Positions 20,596 to 48,601 of a stretch of 60,298 nt of DNA are shown here, in pieces. Within the stretch, counting starts at the first letter, position 1, and the number at the start of each line of letters is the position of its first letter. The DNA is from an uncultured Gammaproteobacteria bacterium (GTDB taxonomy: Bacteria > Patescibacteriota > Microgenomatia > UBA12405), in contig CAZLCB010000001.1 in assembly GCA_964558195.1 (NCBI GenBank), forward strand, positions 1 to 60,298, in the 5' to 3' direction. Below the pieces are notes generated by a model, which did not search any database, was not told where the DNA came from, and saw only the letters and a list, made by a program, of their open reading frames with translations. Position numbers and translations under genes: made by a program.

Positions 20596-21312
20596 TTATT
20601 TATTTTTGCTTTTGGCGGCGAACTTGGCACCGGTACGCGATCCAAAATGACGCTGCTTAAAAACACTACTACGAACGTGTAAAGGGGAACTGGCTAAATA
20701 TTCTGGTTTTTGACCAGGTCGAGGACGGAATTTCTTTTTATTTTTAGCAGGGAAAGATTCCGGAATAAATTTTGGAGTGTATTCGCCACTAGTATCGCGA
20801 TTTAGAGATTTACCTAAAGAATTGAAAACCGGTTTACCACCTTTATATTTTTTGTGAGGTCTAAATTCTGAATTATTACTTTGATTATCGTCAAAATTAA
20901 AACGAGAAGACGAATGAGCTTGAAAACTGCGTTTTTGATATTCGTTGGTATCAGAGTCGGGGTGGGGTAAATAATTTAAAGCCTGGCGACGATTAGGGTG
21001 TTTAGCTAAGGCTTCTTCGTGACGAGCTTTACCTTCGGGAGTTAAAAACGGATCAGGCTGAGCATAATCAACAATGATACTGCGATCACCCAAATGAAAA
21101 TTATGATACTTTTCTTTGGCACGAATAGCATCGTCGAGATTTTCATATTCGATATAGCCCATACCGCGGCTTTTACCCCAACGATTGTGCATAATGCGAA
21201 CAGAAATAATTTTTCCCTCAGAAATAAATAAGTCTAAAAGTTCACCTTCGGTAAAGCGATAAGGCAAACTACCGATGAATAATCTTTTGGAGACAGGTTT
21301 GTTTTCGTTCAT
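20596..21312 (-). CDS. RRM (RNP-1) RNA-binding protein with a long basic tail
   Basis: RLFIGSLPYRFTE (RNP-2) and RGMGYIEY (RNP-1), followed by a Lys/Arg/Ser-rich C-terminus. Confidence 0.8.
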   Translation of the reverse strand: MNENKPVSKRLFIGSLPYRFTEGELLDLFISEGKIISVRIMHNRWGKSRGMGYIEYENLDDAIRAKEKYHNFHLGDRSIIVDYAQPDPFLTPEGKARHEEALAKHPNRRQALNYLPHPDSDTNEYQKRSFQAHSSSRFNFDDNQSNNSEFRPHKKYKGGKPVFNSLGKSLNRDTSGEYTPKFIPESFPAKNKKKFRPRPGQKPEYLASSPLHVRSSVFKQRHFGSRTGAKFAAKSKNK

Positions 21313-21996: not shown

Positions 21997-22157
21997 TTGC
22001 TCTTGAGATTGTTGATAGTTTCATCAAAATTGTTGATGTGATCTTGTTTGATACTTTCAAGAAGTTCAACCAAAAGACTGTTCATGTATTGCTTGACTCC
22101 TTCGGCTTGCTCCGGAGTAAGTTTTAATTCTTGAATTAGTTGTTCTATGGTTTGCAT
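21993..22157 (-). CDS. Small hypothetical protein (54 aa), below the ORF-track cutoff
   Basis: ATG at 22157, stop at 21993-21995, translating to MQTIEQLIQELKLTPEQAEGVKQYMNSLLVELLESIKQDHINNFDETINNLKSN. Confidence 0.3.
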   Translation of the reverse strand: MQTIEQLIQELKLTPEQAEGVKQYMNSLLVELLESIKQDHINNFDETINNLKSN

Positions 22158-22187
22158 TTGGCTAAATTATACCATTTGACGTATAAT
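22158..22187 (+). promoter_or_regulatory. Possible sigma70-type promoter for tRNA-Gln
   Basis: TTGGCT (22158-22163), 18-nt spacer, TATAAT (22182-22187). It ends 12 nt before the tRNA 5' end. Confidence 0.35.
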
Positions 22188-22199
22188 AATGGCCATTAC

Positions 22200-22270
22200 T
22201 ACCCCATCGTCTAATGGTAGGACACTACGCTCTGAACGTAGTAATTGTGGTTCGAATCCATGTGGGGTAA
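22200..22270 (+). tRNA. tRNA-Gln (anticodon CUG)
   Basis: Hand-folded cloverleaf. Acceptor UACCCCA/UGGGGUA, D stem GUCU/GGAC, anticodon stem CUACG/CGUAG with loop CUCUGAA, T loop UUCGAAU. CCA is not encoded. Confidence 0.9.
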
Positions 22271-22290
22271 CAAAAAAAAACAGTAGTGTT

Positions 22291-22935
22291 TTATTTAGAA
22301 TTTTTATAACAACTCAATATTTCTGGGTATATCAATGGTATTTTTTCTAAAATCTTTAGATCTGATTTCATTTCGTCATTTTTTTTCTTTATTTGATTGG
22401 TCATATCTTCACCTACTCCCAAATTAGTCCACATATCAATGAGATCTTGGGAAATTAATTCATTTTTTTTATAAAGATCAATAAGAATTTGATTGTATTT
22501 TTTTATTAATTCATTTTTTTCATTATTAGGTGTTTCTGTATACTCTAGATGTTTTAAATAATTTTTTATGGGAAATTGAGATACATCGTGCAAATCTTGA
22601 AATATTTTTAAATTTGTTCTTAAAACCCAATGTTCTGGTGATAATTTATTTTTTTCGTCTTTAAAGATATCTAATAAATCAGGAAAAATATATTTGAAAA
22701 CTTTAAATTGGATTTTGTCACAGATTAAATGGACAAACCACCCTTTTTTAAAATCATCATCCTTATAAAAATTATCGTTTAAGAAATTATTACTGTGGGT
22801 TGTCTCTCGATCAATTTTCGTGATATAGCGGCTATCAGGATAAACCGTTCCTGATATATATTCATCAAGATTTTTAATATCAAAATCGTTTTTAACATCC
22901 AGAGCAAACCTGATATGAGTTCCAAGAAGTGCCAT
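22291..22935 (-). CDS. Hypothetical protein (possible metal-dependent hydrolase)
   Basis: 214-aa ORF. Scattered His/Asp motifs (GTHIRFA, YPDSRY, WFVHLICD) are only weakly suggestive. Confidence 0.5.
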   Translation of the reverse strand: MALLGTHIRFALDVKNDFDIKNLDEYISGTVYPDSRYITKIDRETTHSNNFLNDNFYKDDDFKKGWFVHLICDKIQFKVFKYIFPDLLDIFKDEKNKLSPEHWVLRTNLKIFQDLHDVSQFPIKNYLKHLEYTETPNNEKNELIKKYNQILIDLYKKNELISQDLIDMWTNLGVGEDMTNQIKKKNDEMKSDLKILEKIPLIYPEILSCYKNSK

Positions 22936-22975
22936 AATGTTGATTATAACCTAATAATTTTTGGTAGAATAGGTT

Positions 22976-23308
22976 GTGACGCGAATTAAGTTTAAGAGTG
23001 ATAAGTATAAAAAAGTTAGGGGTGGATATTCCAGATTATTAGACATTTCTTGTGCCAGATGCGGACAACATCTGTGTCTTTATCAAAAAGATGGACCGGG
23101 ATTATTGAAGAGAATGTATTTAGATAGAATTTATGAATCGGATAAATATTCTGGGTTAGAAAATAAACCACTGAAATTAATTCCTAATTTAGTTTGTACT
23201 GGCTGTAATCAAATTGTTGGTATTCCTTATATTTATGAACCGGAGAAAAGATTAGCTTTTAGATTGTTTGTGGGTGAAGTATCGAAGAAAATTGTTAAGT
23301 CAAAATAA
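22976..23308 (+). CDS. Hypothetical CxxC...CxxC zinc-ribbon-like protein
   Basis: 110-aa ORF with a GTG start. It contains CARCGQ and CTGCNQ pairs. Confidence 0.5.
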   Translation: MTRIKFKSDKYKKVRGGYSRLLDISCARCGQHLCLYQKDGPGLLKRMYLDRIYESDKYSGLENKPLKLIPNLVCTGCNQIVGIPYIYEPEKRLAFRLFVGEVSKKIVKSK

Positions 23309-23332
23309 TTCAGTAGCGGAGTTTTGATATTT

Positions 23333-23393
23333 AAAAAAAACGAGGCCCAGGATTGTGTTTCGCACGATGCGAATATAAACACAGCCCTAGGCC
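23333..23393 (-). terminator. Long hairpin plus U8 tract, terminator-like on the minus strand
   Basis: 23344-23360 pairs with 23377-23393 over 17 positions. On the minus strand this gives 14 Watson-Crick pairs, 2 G.U and 1 mismatch. An inner ttcgca/tgcgaa stem is present. The A8 run at 23333-23340 reads as U8 three nt after the stem on the minus strand. Confidence 0.55.
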
Positions 23394-24075
23394 AATGGAT
23401 AAGTCGGGAAAGGAAGGGAGAAGGGGTTGCGTTGGTGACGCGTGGAGTGGCTTGCGGGCGATGAGACGCGCGCGAAGCATTTCCTTGGCCCAATGGTTGG
23501 GTCAGAATGATACGAAAGATATTCAGTTTTCGAGTCACACAAGACCAACGGAGACGATCGGCCCGGCGGATTGATCCATGATGGATTACTACCGTGTTGT
23601 TGTGGCGAAGTCGAACGAGTGTGTGTTCCAAGAGAACTTTTCTCGTGTAGACGACGCCGGGCCGAAGAGATGGATTACCATAGTCCCCTTGAGGCTTAAG
23701 TGCATTTCACCTCAGGCGGCTGCCGTCTGCGCCACTGCGCTGTTCGAGGCCTGGGATTTGGGCGGACCGGTGTTGGTGTGTGACATGCTCGAAGCCCCCT
23801 TAGCGTTCAGCCGTGAACTGGGCGTAGGCCTTTGCCTTCGCCGAAGAAACCCCGGGTTACTACTGCATGGGATTGTCCCTTTTGCCTTTGTTGGCCTAAT
23901 GCAGTGAGTTGAGATTCACAACAGCAACTGTGGCGGCATGATGTTGTCTGGAGCGGTCTGACTAGTTCAATGGACTGCCTCCTCTCCTAGGTCGATTCGC
24001 CCCTGTAGTAACGGTTGGCGCGGTCGGACGCGAGGATGCGAGACAAAAATGATTCACCTCTCTTTCCTTTCTAAT
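23344..24075 (+). ncRNA. Candidate large structured ncRNA of unknown class (GC-rich island); strand unresolved
   Basis: Hand count over 23341-24060 gives G 226, C 170, A 152, T 172 (55% GC). No credible ORF is present. There are many helices, including a perfect 10-bp G/C helix (23559-23568 with 23655-23664). G+U excess and G.U-dependent helices favour the plus strand. The hairpin plus U8 at 23333-23393 favours the minus strand. Confidence 0.5.
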
Positions 24076-24185
24076 TGTTCAGGTACAGTGAAAACAATAT
24101 TTATAAAAACGCTATGTTTTTATATAATTTTTTCAATAATAGATGGAGTTTATATCGAACAAGAAATTAATTCAATGGGGAAAAA

Positions 24186-25010
24186 TTAGTTTGAGAATTT
24201 AATATGGGATAAATAGATTTTTTCGAAACCGGAAATAAAACGTTTTTTGGCATCAGGGACGAATTTTTGATAGATAGAAAATAAGCCTAACCATTGGTTT
24301 AAATTTAATTGAGTTGGTTTGAGAGAATTTACTTTTAATTGGTGATTAATTTTTTTGAACTGATCATAGGAAAATATTTTTTTGTAAATTTCAAAAATAT
24401 TGGGCTTCCATTGATTAAAACCAAAAATAATAAAATCACGAAATTGTTGATAATGCGGCAGATCAATTAATGGTTTATTTAGTAAAGTAAATTTGGCAAA
24501 AACTATATTTACTTGAGGCTTGGGGGTAAAAGCAGTCCGATCAATATCACCTAAAATTTCAACAGCAAAAAATGGAGCAGCCAGTATAGCATCTTGATTA
24601 TTAATATCATCGAATAAAGAAAATTTTTCGGCGGCTTCTTGTTGTAAGATTAAATACATTTCGTCTGGCTTATTGGGTGATTTTAGAATTTTATTGATTA
24701 TAGGAGCAGTAATTGAGAAAGGAATATTGGAAAATATTTTATAGGGTGTTTTTGGTAGTGACCATAAAAGAAAATCAGTGTTAATTAATTTAAAATTTTT
24801 ATTTTGAGAAAATCGATCTTGGAGTTCATTAATTAATTGACGATCTTTTTCGATAGCAATGACCTGGCAACCAAAATTTAATAATTTTTGAGTAATAATT
24901 CCCTTACCTGGACCAATTTCGACAACAACATCTCCAGAATTTATTTGACTGGATTGAAGAAGTTGAGAAACAAGTTGGGGTGATTTAATGAAATTTTGGG
25001 AAAAATTCAT
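24186..25010 (-). CDS. Erm-type rRNA adenine N6-methyltransferase (Erm/KsgA family)
   Basis: SQNFIKS start, SAM motif VVEIGPGKGIIT, AIEKD, YKIFSNIPFSIT, and a C-terminal ...YKKIFS..QF...L.LF.IY pattern that tracks ErmC as I recall it. Confidence 0.8.
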   Translation of the reverse strand: MNFSQNFIKSPQLVSQLLQSSQINSGDVVVEIGPGKGIITQKLLNFGCQVIAIEKDRQLINELQDRFSQNKNFKLINTDFLLWSLPKTPYKIFSNIPFSITAPIINKILKSPNKPDEMYLILQQEAAEKFSLFDDINNQDAILAAPFFAVEILGDIDRTAFTPKPQVNIVFAKFTLLNKPLIDLPHYQQFRDFIIFGFNQWKPNIFEIYKKIFSYDQFKKINHQLKVNSLKPTQLNLNQWLGLFSIYQKFVPDAKKRFISGFEKIYLSHIKFSN

Positions 25011-25051
25011 ATATGAGAAATACTACCACAAAGTTTGCTATCATTTTATTA

Positions 25052-26458
25052 ATGGAAAAGAGGACAAAAATCATTGCGACTATCGGTCCGGCTTCTGAGT
25101 CGATTGAGGTAATCGAAAAAATGATAATAGATGGAGTAAATATTTTTCGCTTTAATTTGAAACATAATGAATTTGAATGGCACAAGAGAATAATAAAAAG
25201 ATCAAGGATTGTAGCAAAAAGGCTAAAGAAAAAACTAGGAATAATGATTGATTTTCAAGGTCCGGAAATAAGACTGGATACAAAAGATAAAAATAATATC
25301 GAAATTAATCCTGGTGGAGTTTTTTGGATTAATAGTAAATTAAACAAAGACTTAAGAGTAATTAAAATAAATCCTGAAATAGCGATCAAATATATTAAAA
25401 GGGGGAGTAGAATTTTTATTGATGATGGAAACGTCGAAGGATTAGTAAAAGGCAAAGATGGTAACGGAATTAAGATTGAAGTAGAAGAGTTTTCAGTGAT
25501 AAAAAACGGCAAAAGTTTAAATATTATATCTGAAGAGTTGGACTTACCTATTTTGTCAGAAAAAGATAAGCAAATTTTGGAGAAACTAGATGAAATCGAT
25601 CCTGATTATATCGCCCTATCTTTTGTTAGAAACGAAAAAGATGTTCTTTATTTAAAAAATAAATTAAAAAGTATTGACTCGGCAGTTAAGGTGGTGGCAA
25701 AAATTGAAAATAGAAGAGCAATTAAAAATATTGAAGAAATTATAAAAGTTTCTGATGGAATCATGATAGCTAGAGGTGATTTGGGTATAGAAGTTCCTAT
25801 AAACGAACTAGCTTTTTGGCAGAAGAAAATAATCGACTTATGTCGACTGAATGGTAAACCAGTGATTGTGGCAACCCAAATGCTTCAATCGATGGTGACA
25901 AACAATAGACCTACTAGAGCCGAAGCAACTGATGTATCAAACGCCGTGTTTGATGGAACAGACGCATTGATGTTGTCAGAAGAAACTTCTATTGGAGTTA
26001 ATCCTGTTAGGGTGATTAGAGAAATGAGCAGTATTGCTATTTTTGCTGAAAATTCTATGATTACTAGAAATTTAACTATTGAACCAAAAAATTCAACTGA
26101 GGTATTGGTTGATGCGGCGGTAAAAATAATTCAAAATAATAAAGAACTAAAAATAGGAGCTGTAATAATTTTTACCCAATCAGGAAATACTGCAAGAATT
26201 TTTTCTAGATATAGAAATAATTTACCCATAATAGCGATTACCGACAATAAGGATACAGCAAAGGGTTTGACTATAAGTTATGGTGTTAAATCTTATGTAA
26301 AGAAGTTTTCTAAAACCTTTTTTGAAATGCCACAAAGCATAATTAAAATATTGATCAAGAGTAAACAAATTTCTTATGGCGATAGTTTACTGGTGATTCA
26401 TGGGAATAATTGGATGGAAACCGGATCAACCTCAGATATTAGCCTTGTGTCTGTTTAG
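25052..26458 (+). CDS. pyk: Pyruvate kinase
   Basis: [27 protein letters not shown] and [11 protein letters not shown] motifs. ATG at 25052 lies inside ORF 25013..26458. Confidence 0.9.
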
Positions 26459-48295: not shown

Positions 48296-48601
48296 AGCCT
48301 TCAGAGAAATTGAAGTGTCTGACCTGACGAAAGCTAACGCAATCTGACGGTAGGAAAGTCCGGACCACAAAAGGTACAGAACCTAAAAATGTAGGGATTT
48401 GGGTAACCAAATGGCAATGCTACAGAGACGAGTAAGCAAGCCGCCTTCGCAAGAAGCTACGGTGAGCCGAAGTGAAACGAGCAACCTTCTGGTGGAAATC
48501 TCAAGTTGAGACATCAATATCTAACCTTTGAGAGTCTCAGGTAGGGAGAATAGATAGATGACACATAAACAGAATCCGGCTTAACAATTTCTTTGAAGGC
48601 T
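48296..48601 (+). ncRNA. rnpB: RNase P RNA, bacterial type A, compact (~306 nt)
   Basis: P1 pairs agccttcagagaaattg with caatttctttgaaggct. The P4 strands GAAAGUCCGGAC and ACAGAAUCCGGCUUA are present. Confidence 0.9.

Follow-up and report, generated by a model that had tools for sequence, protein, structure and literature searches.

A GC-rich island behind ksgA in a Patescibacteria-type bacterium is a candidate gene for a new large structured noncoding RNA

What is encoded by a GC-rich island that sits just behind ksgA in a very small, AT-rich bacterial genome? The island occupies positions 23316-24101 of contig CAZLCB010000001.1 (assembly GCA_964558195.1), of which a stretch of 60,298 nt, here called the window, was analyzed; unless another contig is named, coordinates refer to the window. 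It has 52.7% GC and sharp borders, in a genome with 34.8% GC and an assembly of 653,514 bases. An initial annotation, made from the sequence alone, had proposed that a dense set of nested helices between 23450 and 23982, including a perfect 10-bp G/C long-range helix, is RNA-like rather than protein-coding. We favor, with moderate confidence, the interpretation that the island encodes a stable and abundant noncoding RNA of about 670 nt, most likely on the minus strand, directly downstream of and codirectional with ksgA. This would make it a candidate new large structured RNA, narrowly distributed and matching no Rfam family, and the candidacy rests on expression evidence and not on folding alone. 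Bacterial noncoding RNAs longer than 500 nt other than rRNA are rare, and each class described so far (OLE, GOLLD, ROOL, and others) has opened new biology. The Candidate Phyla Radiation (CPR, or Patescibacteria) is a huge, almost uncultivated branch of bacteria with minimal genomes, and we know of no large noncoding RNA class that is specific to it.

A discrete transcript from a noncoding island

The stretch occurs in 20 public runs. Seven of these are recorded as RNA and come from five studies of microbial communities in anaerobic digesters, sludge, and wastewater; the seven contain 85-88% of the stretch's sampled words. Expression was assessed from Logan contigs of metatranscriptomes placed on positions 22000-26000. 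In three RNA runs from three separate studies, a single contig is present that is free of differences from the window, extending from 23404 to 24074 at a depth of 18 (X13), from 23404 to 24071 at a depth of 24 (X15), and from 23404 to 24066 at a depth of 377 (X18). In all three, coverage of the flanking 1.4 kb (22000-23403) and 1.9 kb (24075-26000) is zero, and DNA carry-over is excluded because it would have covered these flanks too. Since the contigs are confined to 23404-24074 and the flanks are uncovered, they define a discrete RNA of about 671 nt, spanning 23404 to about 24074 and far more abundant than its neighbors; the discrete, stable transcript that marks a large structured noncoding RNA was found in each of the three contig sets. 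Two of the three runs hold just 41 and 72 million letters, and because the RNA assembles from so little data even though its host is a low-abundance bacterium, we place it among the most abundant RNAs of the host. Few RNAs of this organism are plentiful enough for assembly from anaerobic digester and wastewater community transcriptomes, and this is one of them. The raw reads of a fourth run (X22) include none on the stretch and are no test of expression.

The two ends of the transcript differ in character. The end at 23404 is sharp, falling on the same base in all three contigs, and the other is ragged (24066, 24071, and 24074). In X18 an Illumina adapter is joined at 23404, and because the last base of the adapter coincides with that position, the end is either 23404 or 23405.

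The island evolves as noncoding sequence. None of the six frames holds a long open reading frame (ORF) across it, the longest being 109 aa on the plus strand and 132 aa on the minus strand, with no Pfam match. GC content by codon phase is flat (0.585, 0.537, and 0.525), and mismatches relative to two homologs (described below) are spread evenly over the three column phases, with indels of lengths such as 1, 4, 5, 6, 7, and 23. The proposal of the initial annotation that this region is RNA-like, not protein-coding, is thus supported by the discrete transcript, the lack of a long ORF and of a codon-phase signal, and the nontriplet pattern of substitutions and indels.

Strand, ends, and predicted fold

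The initial annotation named no strand; the evidence favors the minus strand, which is that of ksgA, and we think it likely that the RNA is encoded there. The gene ksgA is the upstream neighbor in every case, and the gene on the other side differs. Beyond the sharp end and outside the contig-bounded RNA, the minus strand carries a hairpin (23344-23393) followed by a run of eight U residues (23333-23340), so that 23333-23393 has the GC-rich hairpin and U8 run of an intrinsic (rho-independent) terminator; the hairpin stem shows compensatory changes across the genome itself, two homologous genomes (G044 and G045), and a pair of more distant loci (L006 and L012). Genes of the host in general carry Shine-Dalgarno sequences and hairpin/U-run terminators. 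At the opposite end, a -10-like TATAAAT (24099-24105, minus strand) lies in an AT-rich stretch conserved in three species and is a putative promoter, judging from sequence and alignment. Single changes give G.U pairs on the minus strand where the plus strand has A.C, in the stem at 23687-23716 and in a three-way junction at 23861-23906. In addition, the adapter at 23404 is on the read-1 side, and would mark the 3' end of a minus-strand RNA if the library, as we assume, is of the usual stranded type.

The same RNA could alternatively be encoded on the plus strand, with its 5' end at 23404/23405, its 3' end at about 24074, and anti-Shine-Dalgarno-like pyrimidine tracts similar to the 3' tail of 16S rRNA. 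We regard this as unlikely, although a series of observations speaks for it. The plus strand is G-rich, with 209 G and 159 C in 23404-24074, as structured RNAs often are; the skew of the island (G>C, 0.14) equals the background skew of the window, however, and so says little. Within helices available to either strand, 21 positions are G.U on the plus strand and A.C on the minus strand, against 7 with the opposite arrangement; a substitution-based wobble count did not discriminate between the strands. The RNAalifold energy is lower for the plus strand (-79.6 versus -57.7), several of the hairpins described in the initial annotation are more stable on it, the sharp terminus at 23404 might be the 5' one, and the 3' end of a plus-strand RNA would resemble the 16S rRNA 3' tail of a relative (G019). 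Against this, the plus strand has no promoter-like sequence upstream and no terminator, and the upstream plus-strand gene differs between this genome and G044/G045, whereas it is the minus strand that carries the covarying hairpin and U-run terminator and has the slightly better folding z-scores; the adapter orientation also favors the minus strand, with the same proviso about the library.

For a minus-strand RNA, the ends themselves suggest a closing helix. A purine-rich, Shine-Dalgarno-like tract near the 5' end (24057-24071, minus strand) is the predicted 5' strand of this helix, P1, and a pyrimidine-rich tract (23408-23423, minus strand) is its predicted 3' strand, with the RNA ending a few bases beyond, at 23404. 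The transcript ends thus fall on the two strands of P1. Separate minimum free energy (MFE) folds of all three homologous RNAs close with the same 5' purine/3' pyrimidine helix, as does the RNAalifold consensus. We consider the pairing suggestive, as purine and pyrimidine tracts pair easily by chance. The 24057-24071 tract also has complementarity to the 3' tail of 16S rRNA from a relative in the genus. A second Shine-Dalgarno-like purine run (23976-23986, minus strand) is invariant in three species, and RNAalifold predicts that it pairs with U-rich sequence on its upstream side. After this run come a TTG-codon-stop mini-frame (23962-23970) and a motif that recurs in units of other species. Just at or upstream of the 5' end of the contigs is a 15-nt invariant stretch (24074-24088, minus strand), unique in the genome, which may be a leader sequence or the real 5' portion of the RNA; the contigs may have missed it because standard libraries lose 5' ends.

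Between these ends, all of the pairings listed by the initial annotation are present in the sequence, with folding on one or both strands. The two arms of the G/C helix (23559-23568 and 23655-23664) are exact reverse complements, and the helix extends to 11 bp (23558-23568 with 23655-23665), enclosing hairpins at 23572-23588 and 23615-23646. The hairpins at 23450-23478, 23485-23505, 23687-23716, 23821-23842, and 23950-23982 and the three-way junction at 23861-23906 fold as had been described. Comparison with shuffled sequences gives a more restrained picture. Over 23340-24060, the minus strand is more stable than all of 100 dinucleotide shuffles (MFE z-score, -3.27), and the plus strand has a z-score of -1.38, with 7 of 100 shuffles as stable. 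For the transcript-bounded region 23404-24074, the corresponding values are -2.78 (0 of 60 shuffles) and -2.09 (1 of 60), the minus strand being slightly better with both definitions of the region. A perfect 10-bp inverted repeat within 200 nt also arises in 155 of 2,000 mononucleotide shuffles of the island. Taken alone, then, the helices are not far beyond chance, and the folding signal is moderate.

We envisage that transcription would start at an AT-rich promoter belonging to the RNA gene itself, close behind ksgA, or would continue into the island from ksgA. The RNA would terminate at the hairpin and U8 run (23333-23393) and would then be trimmed at its 3' side to 23404. The trimmed purine-rich 5' end and pyrimidine-rich 3' end could then form a flush closing helix that clamps a multidomain fold, in which structural modules, including the G/C-helix domain, would be gained and lost between species between conserved 5' and 3' parts.

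Homologs, modules, and the slot behind ksgA

Homologs of the island are few. BLAST searches of 40 relatives gave no homolog. Within the genus, represented by 38 genomes including the present one, homologs are found in 2 of the other 37, G044 and G045. A KsgA-seeded scan of metagenomes added two loci, of which one (L037) is identical to G044 at all 878 island positions compared, and the other (L038) has the same BLAST matches and alignment rows as L037; because both repeat G044, there are three distinct sequences in total. Profile searches of all loci with nhmmer, using three conserved blocks, gave one weak match (E = 0.17), at the L006 terminator, and an 18-nt invariant pattern, when run against all species genomes, matched the G044 and G045 homologs and, by chance, six other sites. 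A search for genomic targets complementary to the invariant motifs gave nothing notable.

The three homologs are mosaics, with common 5' and 3' parts and modules between them that are present or absent. The RNA of G045 would be about 1,030 nt, with both G044-type middle modules and those of the type found here, and that of G044 about 600 nt. The domain at 23558-23665 (minus strand), closed by the 11-bp G/C helix and enclosing three hairpins, is present in G045 and incomplete in G044. In G045, the helix arms are identical to those of this genome and the enclosed hairpins are kept with small changes. G044 lacks about 95 nt that, in this genome, hold one arm (23655-23665) and the enclosed hairpins. 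The G/C helix is therefore not common to the whole family; it is a lineage-variable module and not part of the core of the RNA. We note that the segment of about 95 nt (23569-23664) is flanked by a 10-nt direct repeat in this genome, is absent between single copies of the repeat in G044, and has no second genomic copy; it looks as if it either inserted here, duplicating its target, or was deleted between repeat copies in G044. A second module (23859-23974, minus strand), common to this genome and G045 only (78% identity), holds the three-way junction at 23861-23906 and the hairpin at 23950-23982, and the junction is kept in G045 despite sequence changes. A block at 23669-23735 (minus strand), which holds the hairpin at 23687-23716, is shared with G044 (92.5% identity over 67 nt) and not with G045.

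Within the three-way alignment, 239 of 543 three-base columns are invariant, and they include uninterrupted runs of 19, 11, 11, and 11 nt. A run of 19 was seen in none of 5,000 shuffles, and the four runs of at least 11 compare with a mean of 0.03 in shuffles. The 19-nt run (23486-23504, minus strand) is a hairpin and is the longest element conserved in the three species. One of the 11-nt runs (23520-23530, minus strand) recurs near the 3' end of an otherwise unrelated-looking unit, L011. As to compensatory change, RNAalifold predicts 119 pairs across the three sequences, 29 of them with a double change, and many of the 29 are in nonhomologous modules; clear compensatory changes are confined to the terminator stem and a few other stems.

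To the strand observations above must be added several others that weigh against the interpretation we prefer. Assembled contigs cannot show strand or true level. The family appears narrow (2 of 37 genomes of the genus, and 0 of 16 genomes from other families of the same order), and in G024, whose KsgA is the most similar (90% identity), two ORFs stand where the island would be. Once the invariant runs are set aside, conservation of the blocks barely exceeds that of silent sites: the blocks shared with G045 have 68-72% identity, compared with 71% at KsgA third codon positions, and those shared with G044 have 72-90%, compared with 64%. Evidence of covariation is thin, as three sequences cannot give significant covariation, and the role suggested below for the RNA is wholly speculative.

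Several of these points would also be at home in an explanation in which there is no structured-RNA function, and the island is instead a GC-rich autonomous unit with a decayed frame, or a messenger for tiny peptides, whose RNA accumulates through strong transcription and high GC content. The region behind ksgA is a hot spot in the genus: in 13 of 18 loci examined, a purine tract lies about 80-135 nt beyond the stop codon of ksgA (in one case after an inserted ORF) and is followed by 0.2-1 kb of sequence that is unrelated to the island and often GC-richer. Some of these units carry clear small ORFs, of about 60 aa in L044 and about 63 aa in L016 (both read by eye), and small frames are likewise seen in four others (L011, L042, L048, and L043). 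The island has its own short frames, of 19, 2, and 24 codons, behind strong ribosome-binding-like sites, and the near-silent identity of its blocks, the coming and going of its modules, and its absence from G024 fit this explanation as well. Only two stretches of more than 700 nt in the 653-kb assembly have >50% GC, the island and one on contig C13, and the latter is a protein gene (286 aa) laid out in the same way. The island resembles these GC-rich small-gene units of the lineage in its promoter-like region, strong ribosome-binding-like tract, high GC content, terminator of the same style, and variable slot; it differs in lacking a conserved frame, in evolving as noncoding sequence, and in giving a product that accumulates as a discrete RNA. 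Moreover, its short frames are not kept as peptides. The 19-codon frame changes frame between species, and of the 24-codon frame with its ribosome-binding-like site (23712-23786, minus strand), only the first nine residues resemble a 26-codon frame in G045, so that it is probably not a gene. Invariant runs far beyond the shuffle expectation, sharp ends on both strands of the predicted closing helix, folds more stable than those of shuffled sequences, and a single contig at depths of up to 377 while neighboring genes were not assembled at all are further reasons why we think a functionless or peptide-encoding unit doubtful. If the island is merely a decayed gene unit, it shows the turnover of GC-rich accessory units in these genomes.

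Two of these other kinds of unit bear description. The units behind ksgA in L011, L042, L048, and L043, from other species, are about 230 nt long with a small frame, read by eye, which ends in Gln-Gly-Phe-His/Arg-Pro-Pro-stop in three of them and in Phe-Tyr-Ile-Pro-Pro-stop in the remaining one; ribosome-arrest peptides typically end with Pro-Pro-stop. As judged by eye, two short motifs, a tract of purines at the 5' side, and a tract of pyrimidines at the 3' side are common to these units and the island. In the long GC-rich stretch on contig C13 (17396-18406; locus L031), the 286-aa gene lies on the minus strand and resembles the island in the style of its hairpin/U-run terminator. Its ribosome-binding tract is long and purine-rich, and the predicted product combines a zinc-ribbon-like CxxC pair at the N terminus with a hydrophobic segment.

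Also rejected were a protein-coding gene or foreign gene fragment, ruled out by the ORF, Pfam, codon-phase, and substitution/indel evidence, and a repeat or mobile element, ruled out by the island being single copy (we found no second copy in the genome) and by its conserved motifs being unique in the genome.

Known RNAs, a possible role, and the genomic setting

A large structured RNA encoded by the island would not belong to a family that we can name. Searches of the whole window with Rfam 15 at gathering thresholds gave nothing but RNase P RNA and two tRNAs, all outside the island; within 23200-24200, relaxing the E value to 10 gave two chance-level matches of 12-13 bits, and the 12 related loci (E up to 1) gave tRNAs and one subthreshold match elsewhere only. 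OLE, GOLLD, ROOL, HEARO, raiA, group I and II introns, riboswitches, and rRNA are presumably all among the Rfam 15 families. 6S RNA (RF00013) has no match in the genome at E ≤1, and none in the region, with a search that is positive in 5 of 14 control genomes; signal recognition particle (SRP) RNA (RF00169 and RF01854) was found neither in the genome nor in the island region; and transfer-messenger RNA (tmRNA; RF00023/ARAGORN) was not found in the window, the copy of this genome being on contig C7 (9115-9545). Known RNA families were ruled out by the lack of any relevant match in these covariance-model searches. A full-text literature search, judged by its listings and the openings of abstracts, yielded no published description of such an RNA.

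Several large or abundant RNAs nonetheless offer instructive comparisons. OLE is an approximately 0.6-kb noncoding RNA of anaerobic Firmicutes with many helices, which is among the top transcripts of its hosts, is restricted to one lineage, and was long of unknown function. The RNA described here is likewise of the 0.6-kb class, abundant, lineage restricted, and predicted to form many helices, but it has no match to the OLE model, is less conserved by far and varies in its modules from one species to the next, adjoins ksgA and not OLE-associated protein genes, and has a CPR bacterium as its host. GOLLD and ROOL are bacterial RNAs of about 0.6-0.8 kb with unknown function and patchy distribution, sometimes located in variable or mobile DNA near tRNA genes. 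Here, too, a tRNA-Gln gene (22200-22271) is 1.1 kb away and the location is a variable hot spot; however, there is no Rfam match, no prophage context among the surrounding ORFs, and a far narrower distribution. 6S RNA is abundant, with processed ends that pair in a closing stem, and at about 185 nt it folds into a rod that opens into a central bubble; our RNA is also abundant with ends predicted to pair in a closing stem, but is 671 nt long with a multibranched predicted fold. Sponges of the CsrB/RsmZ type are noncoding RNAs that display Shine-Dalgarno-like purine motifs, of which the island RNA has two that are invariant, although both of its purine tracts are predicted to be paired and not in loops. 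No CsrA gene (PF02599) was found in the genome, which is 92.6% complete, and GGA motifs number 8 in 671 nt, compared with about 9 expected from composition. A CsrB-like sponge was ruled out on these two grounds, and a CsrB-like mechanism is unlikely.

What such an RNA might do is a matter for speculation. Its abundance and stability, the invariant motifs, the Shine-Dalgarno-like tracts, and the fixed place behind ksgA led us to imagine a stable scaffold or decoy that would act in trans on a protein or the small ribosomal subunit, perhaps binding through the invariant hairpin, single-stranded motifs, and the two Shine-Dalgarno-like tracts. A bolder proposal, which we think quite improbable, is that it is the founding member of a class of large, abundant, structured RNAs specific to ultrasmall CPR bacteria, in which the terminal helix would mimic a Shine-Dalgarno/anti-Shine-Dalgarno duplex and the invariant motifs would engage the small ribosomal subunit or its maturation machinery, the RNA serving as a ribosome-directed regulator or hibernation-like decoy. 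Such a role would explain the fixed place behind ksgA, whose product is a 16S rRNA dimethylase acting next to the anti-Shine-Dalgarno tail, and the RNA would then be acting in cells that have lost many conventional factors. If the RNA is functional at all, an RNA of no known family takes up 0.1% of the DNA in a genome of 0.65 Mb and a large part of the transcript pool, and the modular, fast-changing construction provides a natural experiment on domain gain and loss in large RNAs.

The island is flanked on one side by ksgA/rsmA (24186-25010, minus strand; Pfam RrnaAD, E = 8e-46) and on the other by a gene for a zinc-ribbon-like protein of 110 aa (22976-23308, plus strand). Two kilobases from the RNA gene is a gene (20596-21312, minus strand) for a 238-aa protein with an N-terminal region that resembles an RNA-binding RRM, judged by eye, and a long basic tail, which is a possible partner for the RNA.

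We also note that the SRP pathway seems to be absent from, or unrecognizably divergent in, this genome and its genus. The small form of SRP RNA turned up in 0 of 38 genus members, and so did the SRP54 M domain, in a search that covered 20 genomes with completeness of 90% or more; neither the large form of SRP RNA nor the SRP54/FtsY GTPase domain was found in this genome; the same searches are positive in 11-14 of 14 control genomes.

The host is a CPR (Patescibacteria-type) bacterium. The RNase P RNA in the window (48305-48592, plus strand) scores best with the archaeal model RF00373 and not with the bacterial one (100 bits; E = 8e-27; full length), which suggested an archaeal (DPANN) host; this was ruled out by bacterial-type large-subunit and 5S rRNAs and an adenosylcobalamin (AdoCbl) riboswitch on other contigs, together with the tmRNA on contig C7. 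The riboswitch is of the AdoCbl-II type and is located on contig C13 (locus L031, 6964-7038; 44 bits).

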